Both the position numbers and the translations under genes were made by a program. The notes under the pieces are model-generated. The model searched no databases. It was given only the letters and a program-made list of their open reading frames with translations, and was not told the origin of the DNA. A stretch of DNA of 64,000 nt. It comes from Acidobacteriota bacterium (GTDB taxonomy: Bacteria > Acidobacteriota > UBA890 > WLXD01). Every line of letters starts with the position of its first letter. Positions within the stretch are counted from its first letter, which is position 1. Shown piece after piece: positions 10,582 to 61,024 of the stretch. The stretch is taken from assembly GCA_965205505.1 (NCBI GenBank), contig CBDBHB010000009.1, positions 800,001 through 864,000 on the forward strand. Reading direction: 5' to 3'.

Positions 10582-10713
10582 CGCAGCGGCGGCCCGCGAC
10601 GCGATGGCCCGCGACGCGATGGCCGGCGTTGCGCCCACCTCGACGTAGCGGATCTACGTCTGCGTCGGCGCGCCTTGGCCCCCGCGCCGCGTACTCGGCC
10701 GGCTGTGGTCTAG
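10582..10713. repeat. Palindromic intergenic element with ERIC-like structured core (10626-10677) and a 15-bp tandem duplication
   Basis: Minus strand reads CAAGGCGCGCCGACGCAG-ACGTAG-ATCCG-CTACGT-CGAGGTGGGCGCAACGC. GGCCCGCGACGCGAT occurs twice. Fills the gap between convergent genes and ends at CTAG. Confidence 0.65.
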
Positions 10714-11855
10714 CCAGCAGATTTCTTGCGCGGTACGAACGGGGTCGGAATGACCGTCGCCTGAGCCTCGCCGAACGGGCCTCGGACGGTGAAGGTCGAG
10801 CCCTCATCGGCAAGCGCGACAGGGATGTTGGCGAAGCCGATGTTCTTGTCGAGCCGCGGCGAGTGGATGCAGCGGGTGATGCGGCCGATCTGCTCGTCGC
10901 CGTCGACGATCGGCAGCCATTCCTCGTTGAGGCGAGGCAGTGGGTCACAGTCGATCTCTACCCCCACCAGCCGGCGCTTCACCCCCTTCGCCGCGATGCG
11001 CTTCAGAGCTTCCTTGCCGATGAAGTCGGCCTCCTGCTCCAGGTCGACGAGACGCTCGTAGCCCAACGTGAACGGGTTGTCGTCGAGCGTGATGTCGGAG
11101 CGGTAGTCGAGGTTGCCGGCCTCGATGCTGCGGATCGCCGAGGGACAGATGGCGGCGATGTCCCACTCGGCGCCGGCCGCCATGATCATCTCCCACAGCT
11201 CGTCGCCGCGATCACTGCTGTGCGGCAGAATCTCGAACCCGAACTCGCCGCTCCAGCCTGTACGCGTGAGCACCAACGGGATGCCTTCGAGCTCGGTCTC
11301 GCGCAGGCGGTAGAAGCCCAGCTCCTCGACCCAGTCTCCGAACAGCCTTCGTGCCACATGGATCGAGCTCGGGCCCTGCAGCTGCATCGGCCACACGTCT
11401 GGCTCGCGCACGGTCACGTCCATGCCTGAGCTGACGGCAGCGCCCATTGCCCACAGCAATGTGTCGCCGTCACCGGGCGAGAACCAAAAGCGATCCTCCG
11501 CCAATCGATACAGCACCGCATCGTTGACGATGCCGCCGGCCTCGTTGGTGAGCAGCACGTACTTGCACTGCCCGACTGCGCAGCTCGCCAGGTTGCGCGG
11601 CGTCAGGTACTGGGTGAAGCGCGCCGCCTCAGGGCCGCTGATCTCGACCTGACGCTGGCAGCCGACGTCCCAGAGGGTCACCGTCTTGAGCAGCTTCCAG
11701 TACTCATCGACGCTGTCGGTGTACCAGATGGGCAGTAAGGTGTGGTTGTAGATCGAGAAGCCCTTGGCTCCCCAGCGCCGGGTGGCATCGAAGTACGGTG
11801 ACTTCCGGACCCGTGGTCCGATGGCAATCTGTGCGGCAAAGCCATCGTCGGTCAT
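10710..11855 (-). CDS. GcvT-family aminomethyltransferase/demethylase (DmdA-like)
   Basis: RVRKSPYF...YNHTLLP...LWDVGCQRQVEISGP, TRTGWSGEFGFEI, RSIEAG. Confidence 0.85.
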   Translation of the reverse strand: MTDDGFAAQIAIGPRVRKSPYFDATRRWGAKGFSIYNHTLLPIWYTDSVDEYWKLLKTVTLWDVGCQRQVEISGPEAARFTQYLTPRNLASCAVGQCKYVLLTNEAGGIVNDAVLYRLAEDRFWFSPGDGDTLLWAMGAAVSSGMDVTVREPDVWPMQLQGPSSIHVARRLFGDWVEELGFYRLRETELEGIPLVLTRTGWSGEFGFEILPHSSDRGDELWEMIMAAGAEWDIAAICPSAIRSIEAGNLDYRSDITLDDNPFTLGYERLVDLEQEADFIGKEALKRIAAKGVKRRLVGVEIDCDPLPRLNEEWLPIVDGDEQIGRITRCIHSPRLDKNIGFANIPVALADEGSTFTVRGPFGEAQATVIPTPFVPRKKSAG

Positions 11856-11867
11856 GGTGCTCTCCTT

Positions 11868-11909
11868 CAGCAGGCAGTGGTGGAAGTGTGATAGGTAACT
11901 GCCTGCTAG
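11868..11909 (-). repeat. Mini inverted-repeat element, family A
   Basis: CAGCAGGCAGTGGTGGAAGTGTG-ATAGGTA-ACTGCCTGCTAG is the reverse orientation of the CACACTTCCACCACGGCCTGCTAG family. Confidence 0.75.
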
Positions 11910-14707: not shown

Positions 14708-16174
14708 CTAGCGCCTCTCGAATACGATGCCCCGCTCTGAGCCCGAGCTCAGGCCGAAACCGGTGACGTTGCCGGCACGGTTGCGGTTGAACTCCAGGCT
14801 CGCCGGCTGCGGCCCCGACAGTCCCTGATCGCGGAACCTGATCTCGAAGCGGTCATCGGCCACCGGCGTGACCTGCAGCGGCGGCTCCTGCTCGATGCGC
14901 ACCACCAGGCCACCGTCGGCCACCGCGAAACGGTAGGTGGCGTCGAGCTCGGGCGCGAAGAAGGTACCGGCGTACTCCGCGAGCCGGTCGGATGTCAGAG
15001 CCGGTGGCGCGGAGGTCTCGGCGACAGCTTGCCGGCCGCTCGAGCGGTCGTCGTCGACCTCTTCGGGCCCCAACCGGTCAGCCAGGTAGTGGTCGGCGAC
15101 ACGCTGCGCGAAGCGCCCGGGGGTGGCGTCGTCGTCGTTGCACGAGACGGCGATCGACAGGCCGGGCTCGACGAAGCGCACGAGCTGCGTGCGGAATCCC
15201 CAGGAGCTACCGCTGTGCCCCACCGTGCTCAGGCCTCGGTAATCAGCGAGCACGAGTCCCTGCGCGTAGCCTAGCGGATCGCCGTTGTTGAGGTGCCCCT
15301 CGGTGAGCATCAGTGGATGAATGGCGGGCTTGTCGTCGCCGTGCAGGTAGTCGTCCCAGCGCAGCAGGTCCTCCATCGTTGCGTAGAGCTGCCCGTCGCC
15401 GGCGACGTCGAAGTTGTAGTTGTGCACGATGCGCAGGCGGCCCTGATCATCGCGCGCATAGCCGGTGGCGCGGCGCGGGACGATCCTCTCGAGGTTCTCG
15501 TACATGAAGCTGCCTTCCATCCCCAGCGGATCGAAGATGCGCTCCTGCGCCATCTCGCCCAGCGACTGGCCACCGGCGCGTTCGATCACCTGCGATAGCA
15601 GCATGAAGGCGGTATTGCTGTACCGGTAGCGCTCGCCGGGTTGGAAGATCAGGGCGCGCTGTCGCGACATCATTGCCCGGATCTGCGCGTGCGAGATGGG
15701 GTAGTAGTCACCGCGCCCGGCGAGCGGGAACAGGTTCAGATAGTTACGCAGGCCGCTGGTGTGGTGCAGCATGTGCCGCAGGGTGATCGGCCAGTCGTAC
15801 TCGGGGATCTCGGAGAGCCACGTCTGGATCGTGTCGTCGAGCGACAGCTTGCCTTCCAGCGCCAGCATGCTGAGGGCGGCGGCGGTGAACTGCTTGGTCA
15901 CCGAACCGACGTCGAACACCGTCTGCGGCGTGATGGGGATGTCGTAGTCGAGGTTGGCGTAACCGTAGCCGCGCGAGTAGATCAGGTCGCCATTTTGCGC
16001 CACCGCGATCGCGCAGCCTGCCGATCCCGGCTGCTCCCAGGAAGCGAAGACAGCATCGATCGCGGCATTGTCGGCGCCGGTCTCGACACCGGCATGCGGG
16101 TCATCCGGGGTGGCGCAGGCGCCGGTGAGGGCAAGGCACACGACGAGAGCTGCCAAGCGAGGGGAGGGAATCAT
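14708..16174 (-). CDS. Lipoprotein serine hydrolase (beta-lactamase family) with C-terminal DUF3471-like domain
   Basis: Lipobox LTGAC, GSVTK, HHTSG, YSN, GHSGS. Confidence 0.88.
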   Translation of the reverse strand: MIPSPRLAALVVCLALTGACATPDDPHAGVETGADNAAIDAVFASWEQPGSAGCAIAVAQNGDLIYSRGYGYANLDYDIPITPQTVFDVGSVTKQFTAAALSMLALEGKLSLDDTIQTWLSEIPEYDWPITLRHMLHHTSGLRNYLNLFPLAGRGDYYPISHAQIRAMMSRQRALIFQPGERYRYSNTAFMLLSQVIERAGGQSLGEMAQERIFDPLGMEGSFMYENLERIVPRRATGYARDDQGRLRIVHNYNFDVAGDGQLYATMEDLLRWDDYLHGDDKPAIHPLMLTEGHLNNGDPLGYAQGLVLADYRGLSTVGHSGSSWGFRTQLVRFVEPGLSIAVSCNDDDATPGRFAQRVADHYLADRLGPEEVDDDRSSGRQAVAETSAPPALTSDRLAEYAGTFFAPELDATYRFAVADGGLVVRIEQEPPLQVTPVADDRFEIRFRDQGLSGPQPASLEFNRNRAGNVTGFGLSSGSERGIVFERR

Positions 16175-17460
16175 GGTCTCTCCGTGAGCGCCTGGTAGGC
16201 GAGGATGCGGATCTCGGCGCGGAGCGGGTAACGATCCGATGGCGATATCTGGGTCAGCAGCAACCCGACGAGCTCCTCGGTTCGGTCTACCCAGAAATAG
16301 GTACTGCGAGCGCCGCCCCAGGAGAACGAGCCGGCGGAGCCCATCAACGACGATTGCGCTACGTCGGTGATCACCGCACCGGTGAGCCCGTACCCCACAC
16401 CGCGTGGGCTCGATTGCAGCGAGGTGGCCATCGCCGCCATCGGCTCCGGGCCGAGCGACGGGTCGAGGTGGTTCATCATCATCAGGTCGACGGTCTTGCG
16501 GCCGAGAATGCGCACTCCGTCGAGCTCGCCGCTGTTGGCGAGCATCTGAGCGAAACGAAGGTAGTCGGCAGCGGTCGACACCGAGCCACTGCCGCCGTAG
16601 GGCACGCGGTCCGGATCATGAATCCCCGGTCGGCTCGGCGCCCGCTCCATGCCGCGTTCCGGGGTAGCCCGGTAGCTGGCGGCCAGGCGGTCGGCGTTTT
16701 GCTCAGGAACATAGAAGGCGGTGTCGGTCATTCCGAGCGGTTCGAAGACGCGCTCGGCGAGGAACTCGTCGAATGGTTGTCCCGACAGCACCTCCACTAG
16801 CCGCCCGAGAACGTCCTGCGAGATGCTGTACACCCACTTGCTGCCGGGCTGGCGCGCCAGCGGTATCGACGCGACACGCTCGACGAAATTCGCCAGCGAC
16901 GGCGCCGCAAACAGCTGTGCCTCACTGTACAGCTCTCCGACCGGAGTCTCGTCACCGCCGTAGATCAGGCCCGAGGTGTGGGTCAGCAGATCCTTGACCG
17001 TCATTGTACGGGCCGGCTCGGTTTGCGGGTTTGCGGCGGTGCCGCCGATCCATACCTCGGTGTCGGCAAACTCCGGCAGGTACTGAGATACTGGATCGGT
17101 GAGCAGATAATGCCCCTCCTCGTAGAGGATCATCATCGCCACGCCGGTCATCGGCTTGGTCATCGACGCCATCCGAAAGATGGTGTCCTCGCGCAGCGCC
17201 TTGCCCTGCTCGACGTCCATCATGCCGACCTGGTCGAAGTGGACCAGTTTGCCGCGACGGGCGACGGCGGTGATCACTCCCGGCAGCGTGCCGGCGTCGA
17301 CGTAGCGCTGCATGGCCGGCCGGATGCGGGCCAGGCGCTCGCTCGACATACCCACCTCTTCGGGAGCGGCGCGCGGCAAGCCCTGCGCTGAAGCGGTGAG
17401 CGTTGCACCTGCCACCAATAGCGTCGTCGTTGTCGCGATGACGGAGATCTGTTTGTTCAT
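16171..17460 (-). CDS. Secreted serine hydrolase (beta-lactamase family)
   Basis: Start MNKQISV with RBS GAGGA; FRMASMTK, LLTHTSG, WVYS, WGG. Paralog of 9307-10581. Confidence 0.88.
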   Translation of the reverse strand: MNKQISVIATTTTLLVAGATLTASAQGLPRAAPEEVGMSSERLARIRPAMQRYVDAGTLPGVITAVARRGKLVHFDQVGMMDVEQGKALREDTIFRMASMTKPMTGVAMMILYEEGHYLLTDPVSQYLPEFADTEVWIGGTAANPQTEPARTMTVKDLLTHTSGLIYGGDETPVGELYSEAQLFAAPSLANFVERVASIPLARQPGSKWVYSISQDVLGRLVEVLSGQPFDEFLAERVFEPLGMTDTAFYVPEQNADRLAASYRATPERGMERAPSRPGIHDPDRVPYGGSGSVSTAADYLRFAQMLANSGELDGVRILGRKTVDLMMMNHLDPSLGPEPMAAMATSLQSSPRGVGYGLTGAVITDVAQSSLMGSAGSFSWGGARSTYFWVDRTEELVGLLLTQISPSDRYPLRAEIRILAYQALTERP

Positions 17461-17608
17461 CCGGTTCCTCCAGCAAACACGGCAGTCTAATCGCCGTGCA
17501 ATGCTGTCTAGATGAGATGAGAAGGCCAACCTCCTGAACGCAGTAGCCTGACGGCTCTGCAAACGTTTCTTCAAACGTAACGGGCTCGAAGCCCAAGGAG
17601 GTTGGCCG

Positions 17609-18654
17609 ATGACAAGTGTAACGATTGGACTGGACGTAAGCGACCGGTACAGCCGTATGTGCGTGCTCGACAGTAAGGGCAGGGTGATGGAGGAAGGGCG
17701 GGTGAGGACGAGCCCGGAGGGGCTGGCGAGGCGGTTCGGGTGCGAGGAGCCCGCTCGAGTAGTGCTGGAGGTTGGAACGCACTCGCCGTGGATGAGTGAG
17801 CAGTTGAAGCAACTGGGTCATGAGGTGCTGGTGGCTAACCCGAGGCGGCTGAAGCTGATCTATGGCGAGCACGACAAGACCGACCGGTTGGATGCCGAGC
17901 ACCTGGCACGAGTGGGCAGAATGGACCCAAAGCTGCTTAAGACGGTGCAGCATCGAGGCAGACAAGCGCGAGCGGATCTAGCCGTGATTCGGAGCCGAGA
18001 TGCTCTGGTAAAGAGCCCACGCAGTTGGTGAGCCATGTGCGTGGTGCGGTCAAGTCGGCCGGTTGTCGTATTCCCAGGTGCTCGACGCCGGCGTTCGCGC
18101 GCACCGCGCCAGAGCACATACCGGAGCGGCTCAAGGGAGCGCTCGAGCCGGTGCTTGAAACGATCGCCATGCTGACGGGCAACATCCAGCAATACGAGCG
18201 TCAGATCGCGCAGCTGTGCCAGGGGCGATACCCGGAGACACAGCAGCTCCAGCAAGTGGCCGGGGTCGGAGCTCTGACCGCACTGGCGTATGTGCTGACG
18301 CTTGAGGAGCCGGAACGGTTCAATACCTCCAGAGCCGTGGGCCCGTACCTGGGACTGAGACCGAAGAAACGGCAGTCGGGGGACAAGGACCCTGCGCTAC
18401 GAATAACCAAGGCGGGCGACAAAATGCTCCGACGCCTGTTGGTGGGCTCGGCGCATTACATCCTGGGCCCCTTCGGGCCCGATACTGAGCTCAGACGCTG
18501 GGGGCTCAAGCTGGCCGGACGCGGTGGTCCTCATGGCAACAAAAAGGCAGCAGTTGCTGTCGCCCGTAAGCTCGCCGTTGTGCTGCACCGACTGTGGCTG
18601 AGTGGAGACGAGTACGAACCGTTGCGCGCACCTGTAGAGGTTTCAGCAGCATGA
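17609..18654 (+). pseudogene. IS110 transposase/recombinase split by an apparent 1-bp deletion near 18017
   Basis: ORF1 has the RuvC-like DEDD residues (IGLDVS, VVLEVG, KTDRLDA). ORF2 has YLGLRPKKRQSG and AVARKLAV. AAG AGC C-C ACG CAG would read KSRTQ with one extra base. Confidence 0.88.
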
Positions 18655-33154: not shown

Positions 33155-33429
33155 TGCTCCTGATCATAAGTACGGTGACGTTTGTGGCGCGCGCGAGCGG
33201 GGCGAATTGTAGGAGCGGCGACGAGGGCGATGCTGGGTGTATCGTCGAGGCGCCGCGACGCCCAAGGTGGCCGGTCCCGCGGCCACCCGGAGGGCAGGAG
33301 CGATATGCGGGCGATCTCGGCGTCAGGGCTCGTCGAGGATGGCTAAGGCATCGCCTTCCTCACCCTTCCTTGATCTCGCCCGCATCTCGCTCCTGCAAAC
33401 GTCACCGTACTTATGATCAGGAGCACTAG
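33151..33429. mobile_element. MITE (family B), 279 bp, with perfect 34-bp terminal inverted repeats including CTAG
   Basis: CTAGTGCTCCTGATCATAAGTACGGTGACGTTTG (33151-33184) is the exact reverse complement of 33396-33429; no credible coding content. Confidence 0.92.
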
Positions 33430-33435
33430 TCCGAG

Positions 33436-39663: not shown

Positions 39664-39666
39664 CTC

Positions 39667-39698
39667 CCGCCACGGTTCCACCACGGCCTGCTAGCTAG
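39667..39698 (+). repeat. Family A element end with tandem CTAGCTAG
   Basis: CCGCCACGGTTCCACCACGGCCTGCTAGCTAG between convergent addA and vapC. Confidence 0.8.
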
Positions 39699-39704: not shown

Positions 39705-40082
39705 CTACCAGAGTGTGGTGACGCGGTACTCGCCAAACTCCGCGTCGCCGGTGATGCAAACGAGCCCCTCGGTCTGCGACTGCGCGATCAGCATCCGATC
39801 GAACGGGTCGGGGTGATGCGGTGGCAGGTCGGCGGCGCGCTGCGCGTGTCGCGCTTCCATCGGCAGCTCCAGGAAGTCATTCTCGGCGATCTCCGCCTCC
39901 AGGTCGGCGTCGTCGACCCTGAGTCGTCCGAGTCGTCGTTTGATCGCCAGCTCCCAGATGGTGGCGGCGCTGACAAACACCACCGAGTGGGGCTCGGCGA
40001 TCGCTTGGCGTGCCGCGGGCGGCAGCGAGCGATGGTCCATCAACCACCACAGGTAGGCACGACTGTCGAGCAACAACCTCAA
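39705..40082 (-). CDS. vapC: PIN-domain toxin (VapC family)
   Basis: LLLDSRAYLWW, VSAATIWELAIK, HHPDPFDRMLIAQ. Confidence 0.88.
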   Translation of the reverse strand: MRLLLDSRAYLWWLMDHRSLPPAARQAIAEPHSVVFVSAATIWELAIKRRLGRLRVDDADLEAEIAENDFLELPMEARHAQRAADLPPHHPDPFDRMLIAQSQTEGLVCITGDAEFGEYRVTTLW

Positions 40083-40557: not shown

Positions 40558-41406
40558 ATGGACGGATCGATGCCAGACACCAAGCTCGCGACCCAGCCGG
40601 TGGGACTCCCCGGCTGGGCGCGGCGTCTGAAGGACTCCCGTCAGCGGCGTCGGTCCGAGCGACGGGCGGCGCGCCGGTGGGAACGTTCTGGTTCCGAGCG
40701 TCAGATCTCGCCAGCCGCTGGTACGGAAGCTTCTAGCAGAGTTATTCAGCACCCTGCTAGCCTCTGGCGCGAGCTTCTGACCGAGGTGCCAGAGGACGTG
40801 CATGTTGCCGGCGTCGTTGCCCGCGGCCTGCTCGTCCTGTTGCTCGCCAAGACTACGTGGTGGATGATCGGCAACTTCGAGATGGCCGCCATCGGGGCCA
40901 TCAGTCCGAATGCAGATCCTCCGACGCTCGTTTTTCGAGTTCTGTCGGGCGCTAACCTGATCTTCCACGAGGCGGGTCACGCGCTGTTCAGCGCCTGCGG
41001 CCGTTTCCTGCAGGTGCTCGGTGGCTCGTTGATGGAGATCTCGTTGCCGTGGATATGCGGCATGGCGCTGCTGTTCTCGCGCCGCGACACCTTCGGGGCC
41101 GCGGTAACGGCTTGGTGGGGCGGCGAGGCGCTCGTCGGGTTGGGTCCCTATATCTACGACGCGAGCGAGCAAGTGCAGCCGTTGCTCGGTGGTGTCATCG
41201 GGCAGGATCGCCCCGGCTATCACGACTGGAACAACCTGCTGTCGTGGACCGGGTTGCTGCGCTATGACCATGCCATCGCCGGGCTGGCGACGACAATCGG
41301 CTACGGGGTCATGTTGCTGGGACTTGCCTGGAGCTGCTGGCTGCTGCAGCGGCAGTTTCTGGCCAGCCGGGTGCCGTCAGTGGACGGTCTTGGAGCTCTC
41401 GACTGA
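40558..41406 (+). CDS. Membrane protein with HExxH (M50-like metalloprotease motif); true start uncertain
   Basis: NLIFHEAGHALF, LGGSLME, YIYDA, HDWNNLL; several TM helices. The N-terminal third does not look like native coding sequence. Confidence 0.7.
   Translation: MDGSMPDTKLATQPVGLPGWARRLKDSRQRRRSERRAARRWERSGSERQISPAAGTEASSRVIQHPASLWRELLTEVPEDVHVAGVVARGLLVLLLAKTTWWMIGNFEMAAIGAISPNADPPTLVFRVLSGANLIFHEAGHALFSACGRFLQVLGGSLMEISLPWICGMALLFSRRDTFGAAVTAWWGGEALVGLGPYIYDASEQVQPLLGGVIGQDRPGYHDWNNLLSWTGLLRYDHAIAGLATTIGYGVMLLGLAWSCWLLQRQFLASRVPSVDGLGALD
40733..40760. repeat. 28-bp CTAG-bounded IS-end footprint
   Basis: CTAGCAGAGTTATTCAGCACCCTGCTAG. Confidence 0.7.
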
Positions 41407-51497: not shown

Positions 51498-51512
51498 CCC
51501 TCCATAGACTCC

Positions 51513-51529
51513 ATGATCAGGAGCACTAG
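51513..51529 (+). repeat. Solo terminus of MITE family B
   Basis: ATGATCAGGAGCACTAG between convergent genes. Confidence 0.78.
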
Positions 51530-51550: not shown

Positions 51551-52804
51551 CTACTGCACCGCCGGGATCACGTGGTCGATGATTACCGACTGCGCCGAGT
51601 ACGACTGCTCGTAGATGTTCCATGAGTTAACCACCGCCACGAGGTCGAGCTCGGGGACGATGATCAGCGACTGGCCCCCGTACCCCGATCCGCCGTACTG
51701 CTTCGGGGCGTCGCCGCTGCCGTCGTTCATGATCCACCACTGAAAGCCGTAGCCGCGTTTGCTGTCGGGGTTCTCGGGGGTAGCGAACGACACCCACGGA
51801 CGTGCCGATCTCTCTACCCAGCCTTCCGGGAGAAGGCGGACGCCGTCCCAGACCCCGTCCCGCATGAACAGATAGCCGATCTTCGCGAGATCTTCCGGCT
51901 TGAGGTACAGGCCGCCCTCGGTGTCTTGGAGGCCGTCGGGAATCGCCTTCCAGTAGTAATCGGTGATGCCCAGCGGGCCGAAGAGGTATTGCTCGGCGTA
52001 CTCCCCGACGTTGAGGCCGGTGGTGGCTTCGAGAATCGCCGCCATGATCATCGAGTTGCCGCTGTTGTAGACGAACGTCTCTCCCGGCACCGCCGCCATC
52101 GGCTTGTCGAGCACGAACTGCACCCAGTCTTCCGAGGCTTCGAGCTGCGCCGCGTCGTTGCCCATATCTGTATAGGGCAGCGTGAACTCGTCCCACTCGA
52201 AGCCCGGTCGCATAGTGAGCACATGTTCGAGCGTGATCGTCGCCTTCACCCCGTCGGGGTCGTCGATCTCCCGATCCGAGAGGTAGGAAAGCGCCGCAAC
52301 GTCGGTGCCTTCGATCTCGCCCCGGTAGATGGCGATGCCGATCAGCGCCGAGGTCACGCTCTTGGTGATCGACTGGATGGTGTGTACGTCGGATCCTTCA
52401 CGAAACGGGTGGTAGTCGGGATTGTAATAGTTGTACTGGTGCGGCTCCTGCTCGTAGCCGGAGTTGATCTCCACGTAGTCGTGCTCATAGCGGAAATCGG
52501 CGATGACCCGCCCGTGGCGCGTCACCACCAACGCATCGACATTGCCGTAGGCTCCGGCGGCCAGTTGGGCGTCGAGCGCGGTCAGCGCGGCGCCGTCGAC
52601 GCCTTCGTCCTCGGGAGCCGAACGACTCCAGCCGTTGGTTGGCCAAGAAGTGGCTTCCGGCATCTCCACGTCGTTCGCATCGCCGCCGGCGCATGCGACC
52701 ATCGCCGTGCAGGCGAGGGCGGCGAGCAGCCGCGCGAGGGCTGGCTGGCGTTCGATACGGTGTCGGCCGGAGAAGGTGTGTGATGGGGTGAGGCGCTCTC
52801 GCAT
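51551..52804 (-). CDS. Lipoprotein serine hydrolase (NylB-like beta-lactamase family)
   Basis: Lipobox-like MVAC, QSITKS, FVYNSG, LAKIGYL, GYGGQ. Confidence 0.88.
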   Translation of the reverse strand: MRERLTPSHTFSGRHRIERQPALARLLAALACTAMVACAGGDANDVEMPEATSWPTNGWSRSAPEDEGVDGAALTALDAQLAAGAYGNVDALVVTRHGRVIADFRYEHDYVEINSGYEQEPHQYNYYNPDYHPFREGSDVHTIQSITKSVTSALIGIAIYRGEIEGTDVAALSYLSDREIDDPDGVKATITLEHVLTMRPGFEWDEFTLPYTDMGNDAAQLEASEDWVQFVLDKPMAAVPGETFVYNSGNSMIMAAILEATTGLNVGEYAEQYLFGPLGITDYYWKAIPDGLQDTEGGLYLKPEDLAKIGYLFMRDGVWDGVRLLPEGWVERSARPWVSFATPENPDSKRGYGFQWWIMNDGSGDAPKQYGGSGYGGQSLIIVPELDLVAVVNSWNIYEQSYSAQSVIIDHVIPAVQ

Positions 52805-52860
52805 GGGTGATCTCGCTGGTCTGTTGGCAGGAAGGCGTGCACCTTAGCATTCGGCCGGAG

Positions 52861-52997
52861 GGTTACGACGATTCGGGGCCATCTGCTGCGTTGGCCTTCC
52901 TCGACGATGGCTAGAGCATCGCCAGCGTCAGGCCGCCTTCCAACTGGCCCCAACTCGCCGTAACCAGGCCCGCCACACTTCCACCACGGCCTGCTAG
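52861..52997. repeat. Family A element carrying the ERIC-like core in a long hairpin
   Basis: GGTTACG..CGA..GGGGCCA pairs with TGGCCCC..TCG..CGTAACC around core 52888-52940; followed by CCGCCACACTTCCACCACGGCCTGCTAG. Confidence 0.78.
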
Positions 52998-54807: not shown

Positions 54808-54831
54808 GCCTCCACAACCCTGTCGGCCGCC

Positions 54832-54859
54832 CCGCTACACTCCCACCACGGCCTGCTAG
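54832..54859 (+). repeat. Family A element end
   Basis: CCGCTACACTCCCACCACGGCCTGCTAG; its CTAG is the stop of the convergent lipoprotein gene. Confidence 0.8.
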
Positions 54860-55893
54860 GACGGCGGAATAGGATCTTCGGTGTGCGTCTCCGCGTCGTC
54901 TTCGTGCGTCAGCTCGATATCGATGCCGTACCAGAGCCACTCGGGGGTTAGCTTCAGCCCTGCCGGCGATGCCGCCACGTCGAGCACGTGACCGCCCAGC
55001 TCGAGCGTCTCGCTGACGCTCAAGGGCATGGTGATCGGGCGCAGCACGCTGTCGGGCAGACCGAAGCGGAAGCCCGTGTGCAGGATCTCCCGCAGCTTGG
55101 TCTCCATGCTGTCGGCGTTGAGCGCCAGGCCGCAGCGGAACATCTTGTCCTGTGCCGCGAGGATCTCGCGCACGTGCGCCCACGATTCCTCGGTGGGCTC
55201 CGGTTGTACGTCGAGTCGCTGGGGGAAGCTGGGGTCGAGCACGAGGCTGCCGTCGACGGGTGTGATCTGGAAGTGTCCGTTGAGATCGTAGTTGCGCGTG
55301 CGGATCGTGGCCGAGAATGACTCATCCACCTGGAAGTCCCGGCACACGACGCTGATGACGGTGGCGGCGTCCCATTCGAACTTGATGCGCGCCGTACCCG
55401 TGCCGTTTACCACCTGCGCCGGCAGGCGCAGCGCGAAACGGTCATAGCTGTCTACGGTGATCGTCGGCTCGCCGGCGCGCAGCGTGGCCCGGATGTCGTT
55501 GATGCTGACGTGCAGCGTCCAGCGCCCGGCGCGGACACGGATCGGTCCGATCCGCGTCCTCACCTCATTGTCTTCCTGGGCCACGGTGCCGGGGCTGAGG
55601 TGCAACTGCACGTCGTCGAGATATTGGGATGAGGCTACCGTCAACAGCTCCTGCAGCATGCCGATCCGCAGCCGCACAACCACGTCGGCGGCCTCGAGCG
55701 CCTCGCCCACCAGCATGATCTCCGGATCGAGCCGAGCGTCAACTACCGATCGCAAGGCGGCTACCTGTTGCTGCAGGGTTGCGAGGGCCTCGTCGGGCTC
55801 GGACCTTGCGCCGCTCGAGCTGCAGCCACCGGCCAGGACGGTAATCGCGAGGCCGGCAACGAGATGCGGGCGCGATTGATGACAGACCCGCAT
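54856..55893 (-). CDS. Hypothetical lipoprotein
   Basis: Lipobox LAGGC, short coiled coil, long beta-rich body; TGATG coupling to the upstream gene. Confidence 0.7.
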   Translation of the reverse strand: MRVCHQSRPHLVAGLAITVLAGGCSSSGARSEPDEALATLQQQVAALRSVVDARLDPEIMLVGEALEAADVVVRLRIGMLQELLTVASSQYLDDVQLHLSPGTVAQEDNEVRTRIGPIRVRAGRWTLHVSINDIRATLRAGEPTITVDSYDRFALRLPAQVVNGTGTARIKFEWDAATVISVVCRDFQVDESFSATIRTRNYDLNGHFQITPVDGSLVLDPSFPQRLDVQPEPTEESWAHVREILAAQDKMFRCGLALNADSMETKLREILHTGFRFGLPDSVLRPITMPLSVSETLELGGHVLDVAASPAGLKLTPEWLWYGIDIELTHEDDAETHTEDPIPPS

Positions 55894-56693
55894 CAGGGAG
55901 TGCCTGGGGCGGCTGGGGCATCGTCGTCGGCTATCGACGGTGGCGCGGCATCCACATCGACGTCGATGACTATCCACAACCGCTCGTCCGCGGCCAGCAC
56001 GCTGCCGACCCGTGCGGCGAGCGGCACGCGGACCGCAGGAATGGTGACGTCGGCGTCGTCGACCGCTGGCAGGTGGATGTCGTGCTCCAGAAGTATCGGC
56101 ACCGGTAGGTTGCCGAACAGCTGGTTGAACTCGTTTGCCTTGCGCGTTGCGAGCTCGGAGGCGAGCCGTGCGGCCGGGGCAGACCAGCCGCCGACGCTCA
56201 CCTCCTGCGCCTTGACAGTGAGGATCTCAACTCGGGCGAGTAGCACGCCCAGGTCCTGATCGAGCCCGACGATCTGGAGCAGCCCGAACACCGTTGCATC
56301 GACGAAAACGTCCGGACGATCGGCGAGCGATACGCGACCGTTGAACTGCACCAGCGCCAGGCCGGTGCGAAAATCGACCTCGGCGGCGCGAAGCTGTACG
56401 TGGAAACGCTCGGCGATCGTTTCCTCGACCGGTAGCGCTGCCGTAAGCAACTCGGCGAGAGTGCGCTCGTGCACCACGACAATCATGTCGGCCTCGCCGA
56501 GCACACGGCCGAAATCCAGGCTCTGATAACTCGACAGGCTGGCGAGCTCGCGCTCCAGCACGATGCGCTCAGCGTCGGGTCCAGGATCTGATTGGCAGGC
56601 GGCTGTCAGTAACGAGGCGGCCAGTGGCAACAGGCAAGCGAGAGCACGCGTCTGCCATCGACTAACGTTTCCCGTTTCCACGCCCACCGTCAC
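55893..56693 (-). CDS. Hypothetical lipoprotein
   Basis: Lipobox LTAAC; similar architecture to the downstream gene. Confidence 0.7.
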   Translation of the reverse strand: MTVGVETGNVSRWQTRALACLLPLAASLLTAACQSDPGPDAERIVLERELASLSSYQSLDFGRVLGEADMIVVVHERTLAELLTAALPVEETIAERFHVQLRAAEVDFRTGLALVQFNGRVSLADRPDVFVDATVFGLLQIVGLDQDLGVLLARVEILTVKAQEVSVGGWSAPAARLASELATRKANEFNQLFGNLPVPILLEHDIHLPAVDDADVTIPAVRVPLAARVGSVLAADERLWIVIDVDVDAAPPSIADDDAPAAPGTP

Positions 56694-56741: not shown

Positions 56742-59204
56742 TTACTGGATGTACCCGAGGGCCCGAAGCTTCTCCAGCTCCTCGGCAGACATGCTGTCCG
56801 TCGATCCTTCCTCGACGCGCGCCGCCAGCGCCGACTCGAGCCACATGTCGAGCTCCCCGGCGAGCAACTCGACGACGTCGGGGTGGTCGCTGGCAACGTC
56901 GTTCTGGTCGAGCGGGTCGTCATCGTAGTCGAACAGCTCGTACTCCAGGCGGTCGACGGGACGCTCGGTATTGCGAATCAGCTTCCAGCCGTCGGCGACG
57001 ATCACGTAGCTGGCGGCCTCGTCCTCGAACAATTGCTCGCTGCGGATCAGCGCACGCTCGGCGAAAGCAGGTCGCGGGACCCAGCCGAGAGAGGTCGGAG
57101 CGTCTGGGCGTGCCATCAGCGGCACCAGGCTCTGACCTTGCGCCTGTTGCGGTGTCGGAACGCGCGCCAGGTCGAGCAGCGTCGGGTAGACGTCGATCGA
57201 CTGCACCACCGTGTCGATGCGGCGCGTCGGGATCACGCCCGGCCAGGAGAAGAACAAAGGTACGTTGAGCATCTCGCCGTAGGCGGTGACGCCGTGCCAG
57301 TGATGGCCGTGCTCGAGGAACTCCTCTCCGTGATCGCTCATGAACACGATCAGTGTGTCGTCGCGCCGCCCCAGCGCGTCGAGCTTCTCGAGCAACCGTC
57401 CCACCTCCACGTCCATTGCCTTGATCGAGGCGTCGTACCAGTCCATCTCGGCATCGAGGAAAATGTCGGCGTCGATGCCGGCCTCCGCCAGGGTCTCGAC
57501 GCTCGGAAGCCTCTGGCTCTTCATGAGCCCAGGTTCCATGATCTCCACCGCTGCCGCCAGGTTTTCGCGATGCTGCTCGGCCTCGGCGTCGTCCATGTAG
57601 GCGCCGTCATACGGCCCGTAGGGCTCGAACGGGCTATGAGGGTCGAAGACATGCAGGAATGCGAAGAACGGGGTGTCGCGGTGCGTTTCCAGCCACCGCA
57701 GCAGCCGATCCACGAATGTGCGCGCGGTCTTGGAGTCGCTGTGATCGAGGTCGCCGATCGAAGCGGCCTCATGCAACACCTCGACGCCCTGATGGAGGTT
57801 GGTCATGCGTCCGGTGAAGGGCACCGAGGAGGTATGGAAGGTAGCGTAGCCGGCCTGCTGAAAGACCTCGGCGAGCGTCGTCACCGACGACGGCAGGCGG
57901 TCCGGCGTATCGACGATCCCGTGGCTGCTCGGGTACAGGGACGTCAAGATCGACGAGACCGAGACCTTGGTCCAGGTTGCCTGTGAGACGTCCTTGGTGA
58001 ACACGGCGCCCTCCTCGGCCAGCGCCGCCAGGTTGGGAGCGTTGTCGCGCCTGCCACCGTGCCACGGAAGGTGATCGCGCCGCAGCGTGTCAGCGACGAT
58101 CAACAGCACCCCGCGGGGCGCTCGCGTATCGCTGGCGAGCTCGGTGCGCGCCTCCGAGGCGCGCGCCGTGCGGGTGATGTCGTCACGCTGCCGGATCACC
58201 GGGGTTCCCCAGTAGGCGATCGTACGGTCGTCGTCGGCGCTGGCCTGTAGGGCGAAGGTGACAGACTTGCCAGCGAGATCGCTCAAGTCGATGGCGATTG
58301 GTTCCCAACGGTCAGCCGTGGTCACCGTGTGCACGAGCAGCGCCGATTCCTGGGCTCCGGCGGTGACATTGACTCGGAACGTCACCGGGGTGGGTTCAAT
58401 CGTACCCAGGTGGAGCTCGAGCCAGGGTCGGGACGGCAGGTTCACAGCGAAGGAGACGCGCTCCGGGGTTCGCGTTACCAGGGTCTCGCGGAAGACGTTG
58501 CCTTGCCCCTGCCAACCGAGCCCGGACTCGATCGACCGCAGGTGCTCGCGCCGCGAGACGACGCGAACCGACTCGATGGCAAACTCGGCGCCGTCCACAT
58601 CAGTGGGACGAAGCACGAGGTGACGTATGCCCTCCAGGCGCAATGTCGAGTTGAACGAGCTGCGCGTCGACAGCGCGAAACTCTGCAGCTCATCGCCGGG
58701 AATCACTGGCGTGCTCGCCTGTGCGCTTGCAACGCTGGCGGCTGCCCCCAGCGTCTGCTCCTCGTTGAGTGTCTCGTCGGAGGAAAAGCTGGCGCCGGCA
58801 CGAGTTCCCGCCGAAACACGCATGCGTACCTGGATCTCATGAAGCTCGTCGCCGAGTGTCACGTCATCGGGGATGGCGACGACGAGCAGTCCGACATCGT
58901 CGGTGATTCGCCCGACGAGAAGGCCGTCACGCGCCTGCAGACTTCCGATCGCGCCGATGCCCCGCCAGCCTAGAGCTGTGCCGGCGGTCGAGTCTCCAGG
59001 CGAAATGCCCGCGGCGAAGTCCCAGACCACCGGTTCGATCGGCTCGAGCGGCGGCGTCCCTTCGACGGTCGCGTCTGCCATGCGATCGACCAGTCGGATG
59101 CTGACGGGCTCCGACGACGAGTCGGCGCCGCAGCTGCTGATCACCACGTCCGCGAGAGCTAGCGTGAAGTATTTCGGGCTGGGCCGACAGCGGGCCGTCG
59201 TCAT
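56742..59204 (-). CDS. Sulfatase-like hydrolase with large N-terminal beta domains
   Basis: LIVADTLRRDH, FDPHSPF, WYDASI, MSDHGEEF, DVYPTLL, LEKLRALGYIQ. Confidence 0.88.
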   Translation of the reverse strand: MTTARCRPSPKYFTLALADVVISSCGADSSSEPVSIRLVDRMADATVEGTPPLEPIEPVVWDFAAGISPGDSTAGTALGWRGIGAIGSLQARDGLLVGRITDDVGLLVVAIPDDVTLGDELHEIQVRMRVSAGTRAGASFSSDETLNEEQTLGAAASVASAQASTPVIPGDELQSFALSTRSSFNSTLRLEGIRHLVLRPTDVDGAEFAIESVRVVSRREHLRSIESGLGWQGQGNVFRETLVTRTPERVSFAVNLPSRPWLELHLGTIEPTPVTFRVNVTAGAQESALLVHTVTTADRWEPIAIDLSDLAGKSVTFALQASADDDRTIAYWGTPVIRQRDDITRTARASEARTELASDTRAPRGVLLIVADTLRRDHLPWHGGRRDNAPNLAALAEEGAVFTKDVSQATWTKVSVSSILTSLYPSSHGIVDTPDRLPSSVTTLAEVFQQAGYATFHTSSVPFTGRMTNLHQGVEVLHEAASIGDLDHSDSKTARTFVDRLLRWLETHRDTPFFAFLHVFDPHSPFEPYGPYDGAYMDDAEAEQHRENLAAAVEIMEPGLMKSQRLPSVETLAEAGIDADIFLDAEMDWYDASIKAMDVEVGRLLEKLDALGRRDDTLIVFMSDHGEEFLEHGHHWHGVTAYGEMLNVPLFFSWPGVIPTRRIDTVVQSIDVYPTLLDLARVPTPQQAQGQSLVPLMARPDAPTSLGWVPRPAFAERALIRSEQLFEDEAASYVIVADGWKLIRNTERPVDRLEYELFDYDDDPLDQNDVASDHPDVVELLAGELDMWLESALAARVEEGSTDSMSAEELEKLRALGYIQ

Positions 59205-60763
59205 CTGAGCTCTCCGTCCGGCATCGGTCGCGGGCGAATAACGCCGATGTTGGCCTCGATCTCGATTACCGTGCCGAAAGGTGCCGACATCTTGGCCAGC
59301 CTCTGCAGGATTTCCTGTGCCACCTCAGGCTCGGCCAGCCGGGGTACGCCGCTCTCGGTCAGGCGACGGCCATGGCCGAGATCGACCGGGTACAGGCGCA
59401 GCTCGGCGAGCTGTCCGCCCTCGTAACGACTCACCGGCACGACGGTTTGGTACACGAGTTCGTCGCTGAAGCCTGACTTGGGCCCGGCCATCATCAGGAA
59501 CAGCTCTGCGTCGGTGACGTCGTGCCCCGCGCCGAAAGTCGTGTCGAGATCGTCGGCGTAGCGCTCGTAATAGTCATTGCCGAAGGGGCCCTGCATGTCG
59601 CTCCAGAAGAAGTCGCCCAACCCGTAGAAAATCGGTCGACCCTTGTAGATCTCGATTGGGCGCAAGCGGTGGGTGCCGGTGCCCACGAAGGCGTCGGCCC
59701 CGGCGTCGATCGCGGCGCGCGCAAACGTCGGCAGGAAATCGGCCAGCTTGTCGTGGCCGAGCCCGGTCTGGTGCACGTGGATCGATACGACCAGGAAGTC
59801 CGACAACTGCTTACCCTGCCGCACGCTGTGGAGGTTTTCATGCAGGTCGACCTCGTCTATCTCGTACCGGTAGCCCGGTTCGTCGCCCAGACGGAAGCTC
59901 GTGCTGAAGAGATTCAGCTCCTCCGGGAGTCGCGGCTCGCCGCTGCCCGACGGTTCACCGGCCAACCCTTCGTGGTCGTCTGGATCGGAGTCGCTGTCCG
60001 GGCGCGCGGTGCCGACATTGTTGAGTCGCTGTTGCTCGTTGATGGAACTGCGCAGGCGCACCAGCGCCCGCATCATCGGCTCGGTGACGACCGTGTGGCG
60101 GGTCGTCTTCAGAACATTGAGCCCCGGCCGACCTGGAGCGGCGCCGCGCGGCGGGGCCGCTTCCGAGAACTCTGCAAAAGTGGACGCTACCGACACCAGG
60201 CTCACGCGCCCCTTCGGTGTTTCGAGGAAGCGAGGCGCTCGCGCTTCGGCGCGATGCTCGCCCGAGCCAGCGTGCACCAGCCCGGCTCGGTCTAGCCATT
60301 CGCTGGTCTCGCGCATGCCGGCGCGCCCCCAGTCGAGCGCGTGGTTGTTGGCACGCGAGAACATATCGAAACCGAGATCCTTGAGGTCCTGAGCGGTCTG
60401 CGGGGTGGCGATGCACCAACAGCCGCCGTCTTCGGCCTCGGGGTAACCCACAAACCTTCGTATATCGATGAGGCTGGTTTCGAAGTTGCCGAGGCTCACG
60501 TCGGCCTCGTCGATGATTTTCATCACCGCTGCGAAGGCCGGGTCGGTGGCGAGCATCTGCGAGTGTGGTCGGGCGATGATGCAATCGCCGACCGCCGCGA
60601 AGGTGAATCCATCGTCGATGCTGGTAGCGATCTCGGCGCCGAGCGGCCGCTGCGGGTCGAGCAGCTCTTGATCGGCATCGTTGTCCTGGGCCGTTGCGGC
60701 GCTGGCGCCGGGGTTCCAGATGAACGCCAGTGCGAAGGCGACGCACTGGACTCGGGACTTCAT
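59201..60763 (-). CDS. CapA/PGA_cap-family metallophosphoesterase
   Basis: AVGD, GNFET, ANNHALDWG, VSIHVH, GTGTH, IFYGLGDF. Confidence 0.88.
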   Translation of the reverse strand: MKSRVQCVAFALAFIWNPGASAATAQDNDADQELLDPQRPLGAEIATSIDDGFTFAAVGDCIIARPHSQMLATDPAFAAVMKIIDEADVSLGNFETSLIDIRRFVGYPEAEDGGCWCIATPQTAQDLKDLGFDMFSRANNHALDWGRAGMRETSEWLDRAGLVHAGSGEHRAEARAPRFLETPKGRVSLVSVASTFAEFSEAAPPRGAAPGRPGLNVLKTTRHTVVTEPMMRALVRLRSSINEQQRLNNVGTARPDSDSDPDDHEGLAGEPSGSGEPRLPEELNLFSTSFRLGDEPGYRYEIDEVDLHENLHSVRQGKQLSDFLVVSIHVHQTGLGHDKLADFLPTFARAAIDAGADAFVGTGTHRLRPIEIYKGRPIFYGLGDFFWSDMQGPFGNDYYERYADDLDTTFGAGHDVTDAELFLMMAGPKSGFSDELVYQTVVPVSRYEGGQLAELRLYPVDLGHGRRLTESGVPRLAEPEVAQEILQRLAKMSAPFGTVIEIEANIGVIRPRPMPDGELR

Positions 60764-60879
60764 CGCCAGGTCTCAGAGTGACCGGCGAAAAGCACGTCAA
60801 CATGTGGTGCCACGCGTGTCATCATGGCCTACCGCTTCCCTCCAGGCTGAGCGAGGTGCGCACCGTGTTTACCGACCCA

Positions 60880-61024
60880 GCCCTCCGGGTGGCCGCGGGG
60901 CTGGCCGCCTCCGGCGTCGGCTCTCCTCTGCGATACGCTCAGCATCGCTGTCGTCGAGCCTCCTTGGACGCGACTCAATCGCGCGCGCCACAATATGCAA
61001 CGAACCTCTGTTACAGGACACTAG
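60880..61024 (-). repeat. Diverged half-copy of MITE family B
   Basis: Reverse complement CTAGTGTCCTGTAAC...TTGTGGCGCGCGCGA...GCGATGCTGAGCGTATCG...CCCGCGGCCACCCGGAGGGC aligns colinearly with 33151-33295. Confidence 0.82.

Follow-up and report, generated by a model that had tools for sequence, protein, structure and literature searches.

As far as the available parts of the cited accounts go, the enterobacterial repeat ERIC is listed as an IS630-type MITE (MITEEc1_IS630; PMC11602168), and elements of the IS630 family insert at TA and duplicate it (PMC2170065). ISY100 is active with 30 bp of each end, and duplex TIRs suffice for the DDE transposases of the IS630 family (PMC2170065, available sections). 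RNAs carrying ERIC or Correia repeats are described, in the accessible part of PMC2229807, as affecting mRNA stability or serving as RNase III substrates. The CGTC families of palindromes have stems of 8–9 bp starting with AT, loops of 4–5 nt and a CCA tail, and they include RPE-4 and RPE-6 of Rickettsia (PMC3733652, available sections).

For the window, that is, the whole 64,000-nt stretch of DNA analysed here, five dispersed copies of an ERIC-like structured core had been predicted, and all five segments were found with coordinates and strands as predicted (c1–c5, Table 1). They share one layout: AAGG, stem P1, GA(C/G)G, 2–3 nt, stem P2, a loop, GA(G/C)G, P1′ and RACGC(C). In the five-copy alignment, P1 has 5 bp of variable sequence and P2 has 7 bp. 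With a hand-written structure, 96.9% of the 65 cells in this alignment were paired and 8 of the 13 pairs had changed on both sides; these values were matched by none of 500 column shuffles, and shifting the 3′ partners by 1–3 columns left pairing at only 29–48%. A covariance model was built from the five copies and, with filters off, used to search the entire window. It returned the five cores at 63.7–72.3 bits (E 1e-13 to 1e-15), while the sixth match reached 14.7 bits (E 0.22). Based on this score gap, the window holds exactly five copies of the core, matched far beyond chance. Each copy folds as originally drawn, with modest single-sequence z-scores (−1.0 to −2.9), and all five are intergenic according to GC3-based gene calls.

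The 52-nt core had been taken for the dispersed unit itself, but it proved to be an internal module of which an element carries one or two. The dispersed unit is a TA-flanked inverted-repeat element (MITE) of 272–283 bp, roughly 277 bp. From end to end it reads TA, 31-nt TIR, arm A (sense core), centre hairpin, arm B (antisense core), TIR′ and TA. Each arm is a long imperfect hairpin with the 52–55-nt core at its tip, and pairing of the TIRs would close a two-armed fold around the small centre hairpin. Because the two cores are opposed, one sense core stands in the 5′ half of each DNA strand and of a transcript running either way.

By a pattern scan, the core was also located in MAGs, among them those of Acidobacteriota and Gemmatimonadota, at no fewer than 66 loci. 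The loci are many and unrelated, belong to at least two phyla by MAG labels, and place the core under at least 12 TIR types, in every one of which the core starts 54–55 nt from the TIR start. When the window is added to these loci, 36 of 71 core clusters contain cores on opposite strands, and in 33 of the 36 the partner lies ~110 nt away, start to start. One-armed copies and copies with a coreless second arm also exist, so two cores per element are not required. An end-to-end alignment holds for 34 full-length copies (the window copy and 33 from other genomes; 272–294 bp, picked by TIR matches). RNAalifold predicted 80 pairs for them, 62 with compensatory changes; 95.7% of cells were paired, and none of 500 shuffles matched the observed values. 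Every helix of the element covaried. Both sides had changed in 15 of 18 pairs of the arm A outer helix and in 29 of 30 pairs of the TIR helix, which was paired at 96.8%. It should be noted that covariation in TIRs is expected of any transposon and is uninformative on folding.

Within the window, there are one complete copy (c2 and c3), two left halves (c4 and c5), one orphan core (c1) and at least five TIR-only remnants. The complete copy is bounded by a perfect 34-nt inverted repeat (33151–33184 and 33396–33429) and was matched by the family profile in nhmmer at 33153–33427 (E 3.9e-50). Its fold z-score is −11.9 as RNA and −10.9 as DNA, c2 starts 55 nt past the TIR start, and c3, on the other strand, is 109 nt away from c2. 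The left TA of this copy makes the TAG stop of a gene for a PEP-utilising enzyme (30737–33154). The half with c4 matched profile positions 1–157 (E 2.2e-35) and shares 92% identity with copies in two other loci (L015 and L033) over 147 nt; the half with c5 matched positions 1–145 (E 3.7e-17) and resembles 33151–33305 at 71%. The orphan core c1, whose P2 is of different sequence, gave a marginal nhmmer match (E 0.074), and no TIR was found around it. It lies between the convergent gene ends of 9181–10581(+) and 10710–11855(−), and a 15-nt unit in two tandem copies (within 10592–10621) adjoins it. The remnant beginning at 39664 takes up the 41 nt that separate the convergent genes 36082–39663(+) and 39705–40082(−), and that beginning at 63602 occupies an entire 29-nt gap between convergent genes.

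Table 1. Copies, cores and remnants of the MITE in the window
Feature	Position	Strand	Details
Complete MITE copy	33152–33428	+	277 bp including both flanking TA; TIR, arm A, centre hairpin, arm B, TIR′
Left TIR, complete copy	33154–33184	+	
Right TIR, complete copy	33396–33426	−	
Core c2, type I (GACG...GAGG)	33209–33263	+	Arm A tip; covariance model 69.2 bits
Core c3, type II (GAGG...GACG)	33318–33372	− (sense on minus)	Arm B tip; covariance model 69.6 bits
Left-half MITE with core c4	52839–52996	−	TA, TIR (52964–52994), arm A, centre; homology then stops
Core c4	52886–52940	−	Covariance model 72.3 bits
Left-half MITE with core c5	60879–61023	−	Other TIR type; TA, TIR (60991–61021), arm A, centre
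Core c5	60912–60966	−	Covariance model 71.8 bits
Orphan core c1	10624–10677	−	Covariance model 63.7 bits
TIR-only remnant, F1 type	33426–33456	−	Abuts complete copy; 5 mismatches to F1 string
TIR-only remnant, F1 type	39664–39694	−	TA both sides
TIR-only remnant with part of arm B stem	54826–54856	−	Its TA makes the TAG stop of gene 54856–55977(−)
TIR-only remnant, F1 type	63602–63632	−	CTAG both sides; TAG stop of 63632–63961(−)
TIR-like remnant, F1 type	11862–11895	+	79% complementary to 33431–33464; just upstream of gene 10710–11855(−)
Short remnant, F2-type TIR end	40733–40760	−	CTAG both sides; by eye against F2 TIRs, unscored
Short remnant, complete copy's TIR type	51511–51529	−	Last ~16 nt and TA; by eye

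Similarity between copies ends at the TIR ends. Flanks were not found to be alike over 400 nt or more in any pair of the at least 66 loci, and copy-to-copy alignments are of element length, the longest covering 293–308 nt across TIR-bounded elements. Two copies from one MAG (L022 and L037) share 95.9% identity over 294 nt, and near-identical copies occur within single MAGs, with 5 and 4 identical cores. Among the copies listed, TA stands outside 90 of 107 TIR ends, and most of the remaining ends differ from it by one transition (CA in 5, TG in 4); at 32 of the 107 ends, a long high-GC3 ORF takes its TAG or TAA stop from the element. The window has few CTAG sites (58 observed against 202 expected). 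One chimeric copy (L045) lacks a clean junction, and the TA may belong to the repeat instead of being a target duplication. The first bases of several TIR types resemble mariner-type ends.

No IS630-type or Y1 transposase was found in the ORFs of the window or in 176 ORFs lying up to 2 kb from the copies, and on this basis the copies are considered non-autonomous. Since these same ORFs also contained no autonomous partner with matching TIRs, the transposase family is proposed from the TA flanks and TIRs only. Some copies lie inside operons, namely between rplB and the downstream genes of a ribosomal-protein operon (L051) and between gcvH and gcvP (L042); another sits after parB (L046). The copies inside operons are certainly transcribed, so that a role of the core in RNA is at least as open as one in DNA.

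The predicted covariation of the stems around persistent purine-rich internal loops was confirmed both in the five copies and in 92 distinct copies. The core is a near-continuous helix in which P1 passes into P2 through two tandem G.A/A.G mismatch pairs that flank one covarying C-G/G-C pair. In the 92 distinct cores, 90% of cells were paired, 11 of 13 pairs had changed on both sides and 0 of 500 shuffles matched, a control that takes no account of the relatedness of copies. Each P1 position shows 4–5 pair types, and the C14–G47 pair is swapped to G–C in 27 copies against 61, with 3 unpaired. The mismatches G.A at 12/50 and A.G at 13/48 are each present in 84 of 88 copies, and G.A at 15/46 in 86 of 88, while P2 holds a conserved G.T(U) wobble kept in 65 of the 92 cores. 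At stem positions, G.T outnumbers A.C by 107 to 7, and G.A outnumbers C.T by 50 to 9. Because the pattern used to draw the loci prescribed the loop motifs and part of P2, and the core alignment was fitted to the model, conservation of these columns is overstated. No constraint was placed on P1, on columns 18/19 with 43/44, or on whether 14 and 47 carry C or G. The internal core is better conserved than the TIRs. Selection on an RNA or ssDNA fold had been proposed, and a fold of one strand is indeed the best reading, the G.T and G.A mismatches being strand-asymmetric. As strand-specific G.A mismatches and the G.T wobble are kept while the stems covary, selection appears to act on a single-stranded fold, which would work as ssDNA or as RNA.

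Also as had been suggested, the element is absent from Rfam, with 0 window matches at gathering thresholds, at which the c1 and c4 regions were scanned. When the search was extended to E ≤ 10, region 33100–33500 gave only chance matches to eukaryotic miRNAs and lncRNAs far below threshold, and region 60750–61130 gave no match. The element had no match in plasmid and phage sequences, and a literature search found no description of it. It is a new family of a known kind of selfish repeat, the bacterial MITE, with an unusually well-kept core fold.

Based on the above results, we lean towards the following explanation, to which we give somewhat better than even chances: the element is an IS630/Tc1-mariner-type MITE whose core is a cis-acting mobilisation signal carried on one strand. 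A cut-and-paste DDE transposase of the IS630/Tc1-mariner type would move the element and duplicate the target TA. The core would be read on one strand as a cis-acting signal, which is the least certain step, and would most likely offer a conserved factor, of the transposon or the host, a place to bind on DNA that is extruded or unwound as the element moves. The occurrence of the core in read-through transcripts would then be a side effect or a second use. The argument for a cis-acting signal is that non-autonomous copies decay after insertion, yet the core survives across the TIR types, so that its conservation points to selection on the success of the element itself. The DDE transposases of the IS630 family need duplex TIRs only and thus offer no precedent for such a hairpin signal.

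The same MITE could instead carry a core that acts as RNA, as a protein-binding, RNase-processing or 3′-end-protecting hairpin in co-transcripts, where it would cut the cost of insertion or benefit the host; we regard this as a possible reading, though distinctly less probable. Tandem G.A pairs are typical protein-binding features of RNA, and their conservation in the cores fits such a role, as do the retained G.U wobble, the stop codons abutted by TIR ends, the copies in operons or after genes, and the two-fold design, by which either transcript receives a sense core. The effects described for ERIC and Correia RNAs speak for it too, by the available text of PMC2229807. However, single-core copies show no orientation bias with respect to the genes beside them (7 sense against 3 antisense in 3′-UTRs and 11 against 13 on 5′ sides, small numbers from crude gene calls), and conservation of the core across TIR families in a non-autonomous element is more easily explained by selection for propagation. 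Disfavoured, and hardly credible, is a family of cis-regulatory RNAs or small RNA genes that stands by itself and serves its neighbours, although c4 and c5 each lie upstream of a gene on their own strand (51551–52804 and 59201–60763, respectively). Neighbouring genes are functionally unrelated across the window and the other loci, genomes hold multiple copies, which are truncated or nested, flanked by TA and found in both orientations, and Rfam has no match.

REP/REPIN sequences have a similar look: inverted doublets of a hairpin that keeps its unpaired bases, varies its stems and can be read on one strand. Accordingly, the enzyme could be a Y1 (HUH) transposase, RAYT or TIRYT in kind, rather than a DDE transposase; it would recognise the cores as ssDNA, and TA would be part of the repeat. 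The strand asymmetry of the mismatches fits ssDNA recognition, and Acidobacteria have tyrosine transposases flanked by long TIRs, some with palindromes (PMC3733652, available part). We nevertheless consider this unlikely. The core lacks a terminal GTAG tag and misfits the stems, loops and tail of the CGTC families, and the TIRYT motif GGGGWSAS of the same partial source (PMC3733652) is not evident in the TIRs by eye. The element is ~277 bp long with outer 31-nt TIRs and TA on both sides, its insertion exactly at TA(G/A) stops that stay intact fits TA duplication, and the flanking and window ORFs yielded no Y1 transposase. Slightly more improbable still is a core without function, whose hairpins would follow from mutation that maintains palindromes (template switching or arm conversion) and from the recent common descent of the copies. 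The copies are related, so that the shuffle statistics overstate their independence; MITEs are commonly palindromic over the whole element, and within one MAG many copies are near-identical. Arm-to-arm correction, though, would erase mismatches, and G.A/A.G is kept in 84–86 of 88 cores, across the TIR types and two phyla by MAG label. The variety of P1 pair types speaks against it as well, and the excess of G.T over A.C is unexpected of a strand-neutral process.

Returning to the core as a mobilisation signal, a more far-reaching version can be put forward tentatively. The core may be the essential cis signal of a 'chassis' that underwent many TIR swaps, a G.A-zippered ssDNA or RNA hairpin read by a conserved protein of the transposon or the host; equally, it may be a mobile protein-binding RNA module. 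In the chassis case, the element would be unable to spread without its core hairpin, and this MITE lineage would join DDE-type TA-flanked ends with REP-like structure-specific recognition. In the RNA case, the module would have been sown behind stop codons and inside operons in at least two soil phyla.

Few members of Acidobacteriota and Gemmatimonadota, both abundant phyla of soil, have been cultured, and to our knowledge little mobile DNA has been described in them. A MITE at stop codons and inside operons affects assembly break points, the gene ends set by ORF callers (the element supplies TAG or TAA) and the way in which intergenic 'motifs' in these genomes should be read. In the window, several repeats that seem promoter- or terminator-like are in fact ends of the MITE. 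A core hairpin that is better conserved than the TIRs and carries strand-specific G.A pairs is unusual for a MITE, and it gives a concrete starting point for testing which requirements non-autonomous elements have apart from their ends.

Of the known systems, ERIC provided the original comparison, which stands as to kind, both being TA-flanked inverted-repeat elements, but not by sequence: blastn (word 11) of the complete copy gave no match at E ≤ 0.01 in 5,426 complete E. coli genomes. ERIC (IRU, MITEEc1) is likewise intergenic and non-coding, with terminal TA, inverted-repeat ends and a long stem-loop transcript, but by the available description it has 127 bp, a 7-bp contiguous TIR pairing and one stem-loop (PMC2229807), whereas the soil element has ~277 bp, 31-nt TIRs and two arms with a centre hairpin. 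The Correia/NEMIS elements of Neisseria are also TA-flanked MITEs with TIRs above 20 bp, co-transcribed and processed as RNA hairpins; however, they measure 107–155 bp, belong to a single genus and have an IHF site as their conserved internal feature, and the available part of PMC2229807 describes for them no covarying mismatch-bearing hairpin kept across TIR types. In the same source (PMC2229807, in part), CIR of Caulobacter and Brucella shares terminal TA and a predicted RNA of two long linker-joined arms with a short conserved motif exposed on an arm; CIR has no TIRs, and its motif is a GANTC methylation site in the terminal loop rather than tandem G.A internal loops.

REPs and REPINs resemble the cores in their conserved unpaired bases, variable stems, frequent inverted doublets that fold further, and dispersed extragenic positions, but they are 20–40 nt long, carry a GTAG or CGTC tag at the end and lack both outer 31-nt TIRs and TA flanks (PMC3733652, available part); no RAYT was found near any copy, among the 176 flanking ORFs and the window. 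A REP/CGTC palindrome was rejected by comparison with that description (PMC3733652, in part), the core having 52–55 nt, two helices with internal loops and no terminal GTAG/CGTC tag. The suggested likeness to Rickettsia RPE is not supported by it either, in that the core misfits the CGTC repeats, which include RPE-4 and RPE-6 (PMC3733652, same partial description). A kink-turn, which has a 3-nt bulge in one strand and tandem sheared G.A pairs after it, was also set aside, judging by sequence: tandem G.A/A.G is present, but in the register set by P1 and the 14/47 covariation, 3 nt face 3 nt, all opposed, with no bulge. IS630/Tc1-mariner elements and MITEs such as RUP and Stowaway enter at TA, carry TA on both sides as the soil element does, and have TIRs of 24–31 bp (PMC2170065; for RUP PMC2229807; both in part). 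In the available text, ISY100 needs only its 24-bp TIRs (PMC2170065), whereas the internal hairpin of the soil element outdoes its own TIRs in conservation.

The five segments of the original prediction (cores c1 to c5) were found at the predicted places, and all of them had a common layout. From the 5′ side, it includes AAGG, a 5-bp stem of variable sequence (P1), GA(C/G)G, 2–3 free nucleotides and a 7-bp stem (P2), followed by a loop of 5–7 nt, GA(G/C)G, the second strand of P1 and finally RACGC(C). The proposed covariation of the stems was borne out by the five-row alignment, where 96.9% of cells were paired and both sides changed in 8 of 13 pairs. None of 500 shuffles matched the observed pairing values (here and below, the copies are related, so shuffle counts are not probabilities), and sliding the partners by 1–3 columns left only 29–48% pairing. 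A covariance model built from the five cores and run unfiltered on the whole window returned exactly these five, with 64–72 bits; the next match had 14.7 bits. The five-core observation is not chance. The motif had also been supposed to be uncatalogued, and no relevant Rfam family was found in the whole window at gathering thresholds or in two regions at E ≤ 10. No tRNA or tmRNA genes were found within the window.

The 52-nt core was originally taken for the dispersed unit, but the unit proved to be a larger element. A repeat search placed c2 and c3 within a single stretch of 279 bp, delimited by a perfect 34-nt inverted repeat, and the region of c5 was similar to the left half of this stretch. 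A second repeat family, D1 (about 33 nt), had six occurrences in the window, five of them on the same strand. Its reading as an extended −10 promoter was dropped, since D1 turned out to be one type of terminal inverted repeat (TIR) of the element, hereafter the MITE. Other genomes were scanned with a degenerate pattern based on the window copies, which yielded at least 66 loci (L-numbers below); the scan is biased by its pattern, and the copy numbers and the host range given here are minimum values. A core model applied to the at least 66 listed loci and the window gave at least 108 cores, at least 92 of them distinct. Opposite-strand cores were present in 36 of 71 clusters, and the partner core started about 110 nt away in 33 of these 36, as c3 does relative to c2.

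Based on the loci and a search for flanking inverted repeats, the element is organized in the order TA, 31-nt TIR, arm A, small centre hairpin, arm B, TIR′, TA. Arm A consists of a 24-nt stem, the 55-nt core and the return stem, and arm B is built alike with its core on the opposite strand. Thirty-four full-length copies of 272–294 bp (33 from the loci and one from the window), chosen from TIR matches, could be aligned end to end in a single orientation. In addition, there are one-arm-only variants of 154–205 bp and variants with an unrelated hairpin in place of arm B. The window copies were delimited by an nhmmer profile of the 34 full-length copies together with alignment. Besides the features in the table, a few further CTAG sites in the window bear short MITE end fragments, as judged by eye.

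MITE copies, remnants and fragments in the window
Feature	Position	Strand	Remarks
Complete copy	33152–33428		cores c2 and c3
Left half	52839–52996	(-)	core c4; profile positions 1–157; 92% identity with L015 and L033 copies
Left half, different TIR type	60879–61023	(-)	core c5; profile positions 1–145
Orphan core c1	10624–10677	(-)	diverged, without TIR
TIR-only remnant	11862–11895
TIR-only remnant	33426–33456
TIR-only remnant	39664–39694
TIR-only remnant	54826–54856
TIR-only remnant	63602–63632		span 63599–63635; CTAG on each side, own 7-nt inverted ends; looks like a 31-nt micro-element
Shorter end fragment	40733–40760		by eye
Shorter end fragment	51511–51529		by eye

Some other features of the window should be mentioned. 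Two tandem copies of a 15-nt unit (10592–10621) directly adjoin the orphan core c1. Five PF00144 serine beta-lactamase/esterase ORFs lie within the 64 kb (9181–10581, 14708–16174, 16171–17574, 51551–52804 and 63632–63961), two of which are adjacent (14708–17574). Two small PIN-domain ORFs (5687–6274 and 39705–40082), the second ending at a MITE remnant, are possibly toxins of toxin–antitoxin pairs.

At least 12 TIR types were distinguished, and in each type the core starts 54–55 nt after the TIR start. Among the 34 copies the interior was more conserved than the outer repeats, which is unusual for a MITE. By their labels, the loci come from MAGs of Acidobacteriota (Thermoanaerobaculia among them) and Gemmatimonadota, and these two phyla differ in their TIR types. 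The nearest relatives of the window copies among the listed matches were copies from Acidobacteriota MAGs. The loci do not include the genome of the window, which on this basis probably belongs to Acidobacteriota. A few loci were labelled otherwise, namely L001, L010, L011 and L065 as Brocadiaceae and L003 as Akkermansiaceae. Their G+C content of 66–69% is unexpectedly high for these families, and we suspect that the contigs were mis-binned.

Several observations bear on mobility. The genes beside the copies are unrelated housekeeping genes, no two of the at least 66 listed loci and the window share similarity of 400 nt or more, and the longest copy-to-copy alignments equal the element length. 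Two loci of a single MAG (L022 and L037) were 95.9% identical over 294 nt. TA was found directly outside 90 of 107 TIR ends, and most of the non-TA ends differed by one transition (CA in five, TG in four). By eye, the base preceding TA is usually C, so that the junction sequence is CTAG. At 32 of the 107 ends, a long high-GC3 ORF terminates in a TAG or TAA stop codon made up of the TA and the first base of the TIR, and about 20 of these ends hold under a stricter by-eye reading; examples in the window are the gene of a PEP-utilising enzyme and two convergent genes. Both CTAG (58 observed versus 202 expected from base composition) and TA (1104 versus 1862) are strongly depleted in the window, and about a quarter of its CTAG sites belong to MITE ends or remnants, as judged by eye.

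According to passages of PMC2170065, IS630/Tc1-mariner elements insert at TA, which is duplicated. We infer that an enzyme of this type would mobilise the copies. No IS630-type or Y1 transposase was detected among 176 ORFs within 2 kb of the copies or in the window, and the copies are therefore non-autonomous; one IS3-type integrase was found in L034, more than 1 kb from the copy. A search for an empty site revealed no shared flanks among the at least 66 listed loci and the window. The window does contain a split IS110-family transposase (17609–18654), whose domains DEDD_Tnp_IS110 (17609–18031) and Transposase_20 (18025–18654) lie in overlapping ORFs. It is probably frameshifted, and no MITE sequence was seen at its borders. 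One copy, L045:1848–2260, is a chimera in which the left half of one TIR type lies inside a copy of another type. The junction is not clean, as some 11 nt of the surrounding copy are absent there, and the chimera was therefore rejected as a test of target duplication. Its structure suggests recombination between families as a possible route of TIR swapping.

The fold of the whole element was predicted by RNAalifold from the 34 copies. The structure takes in the TIR stem, the centre hairpin, arm A including the core and, of arm B, the outer part. It contains 80 pairs, 62 with compensatory changes. In total, 95.7% of cells were paired, none of 500 shuffles came near this value, and slid partners gave 36–43%. 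For the complete window copy, the z-score of folding was −11.9 for RNA and −10.9 for DNA. It should be noted that covariation in the TIRs is not evidence for a fold, because it is expected in any transposon whose two ends must fit one enzyme; the informative part is the arms and the core. The counts of G.T versus A.C mismatches in the arms varied with the strand used for fold prediction. For pairs predicted from both strands they were 29 to 8 in arm A and 3 to 3 in arm B, the latter being too few. The arm counts were thus rejected as a test of the folding strand, and only the core offers a clean count.

Among the at least 92 distinct cores, P1 showed 4–5 pair types per position. The isolated pair 14/47, at positions which the scan pattern let be either C or G, was C-G in 61 cores and G-C in 27, with 3 failures. 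The bases around it are almost invariant and form opposed purine–purine combinations: G.A at columns 12/50 (84/88), A.G at 13/48 (84/88), G.A at 15/46 (86/88) and A.G at 16/45 (53/88), in an alignment that was fitted to the model and came from a scan pattern with the P2 centre and GA.G motifs fixed. Hence the core comprises two tandem G.A steps with one Watson–Crick pair between them. The 27 type II cores (GAGG...GACG, including c3) often have a third tandem step within P1 (G.A in 18/27, A.G in 17/27), and 65 of 92 cores have kept the G.T(U) wobble of columns 19/43.

Over all core stem positions, G.T exceeded A.C by 107 to 7 and G.A exceeded C.T by 50 to 9. Neither a duplex-DNA site nor a strand-neutral process maintaining palindromes would yield such an excess. 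Furthermore, the conserved bases of the core are not reverse complements of each other, while the variable ones are. The asymmetry and the non-complementary conserved bases together indicate a core shaped for folding as a single strand, in agreement with the selection on a single-strand fold that had been proposed from the window copies. Two more specific readings were rejected. A kink-turn in the internal loop does not fit, as the covariation register leaves no bulge. A bridge-RNA-like reading could be considered owing to the IS110 transposase in the window, but it fails because in this core variation is found in the stems and conservation in the loops. Bridge RNAs show the reverse.

Full copies occur right after rplB in a ribosomal-protein operon (L051:1943–2219), between gcvH and gcvP (L042:1943–2219) and right after parB (L046:1836–2109). 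Based on these operon positions, copies are certainly transcribed, and at such sites inside operons the element cannot act as a strong terminator. Owing to the inverted core pair, a transcript of either direction carries one sense core. Single cores showed no orientation bias: the counts were 8 to 6 in an initial rough assessment, and a stricter one gave sense-to-antisense ratios of 7:3 in 3′-UTR positions and 11:13 on 5′ sides. Glycine-cleavage genes neighboured 3 of 71 clusters (downstream of gcvT at window 10624–10677 and L034:1937–2109, downstream of gcvH at L042:1943–2219), which may be a coincidence.

Non-autonomous copies drift after insertion, and the core is nevertheless kept across many TIR types, in at least two phyla and with constant spacing to the cleavage site. 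This points to selection on the spread or survival of the element. We propose that the core most likely is a cis-acting strand-specific hairpin, in DNA or RNA, to which a conserved factor of the transposon or the host would bind. A role of the core in the transposition chemistry itself is disfavoured by ISY100 of the IS630 family, which, according to passages of PMC2170065, requires only duplex TIRs. Of the whole element, it is this conserved G.A-zippered core that merits experimental study.

Database comparison gave no match for two full elements among plasmids or for one full element among phages (blastn, word size 11). No published description of this MITE was found in full-text searches of the literature on MITEs, IS630 elements, Acidobacteria and Gemmatimonadota; the supplementary MITE catalogue of PMC11602168 may contain it. 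The predicted likeness to ERIC holds at the level of kind but not of membership: a blastn search against E. coli genomes gave no match, while ERIC/MITEEc1, Correia and RUP are, in passages of PMC2229807, bacterial MITEs like this element. CIR repeats, as outlined there, share with it the design of two arms plus a linker. Its features do not fit the GTAG or CGTC repeat families, including CGTC-tagged REPs, as far as these are characterized in sections of PMC3733652. The nearest in logic, based on the same sections, are REP/REPIN sequences, in which hairpins are likewise arranged in inverted pairs and unpaired bases are conserved.
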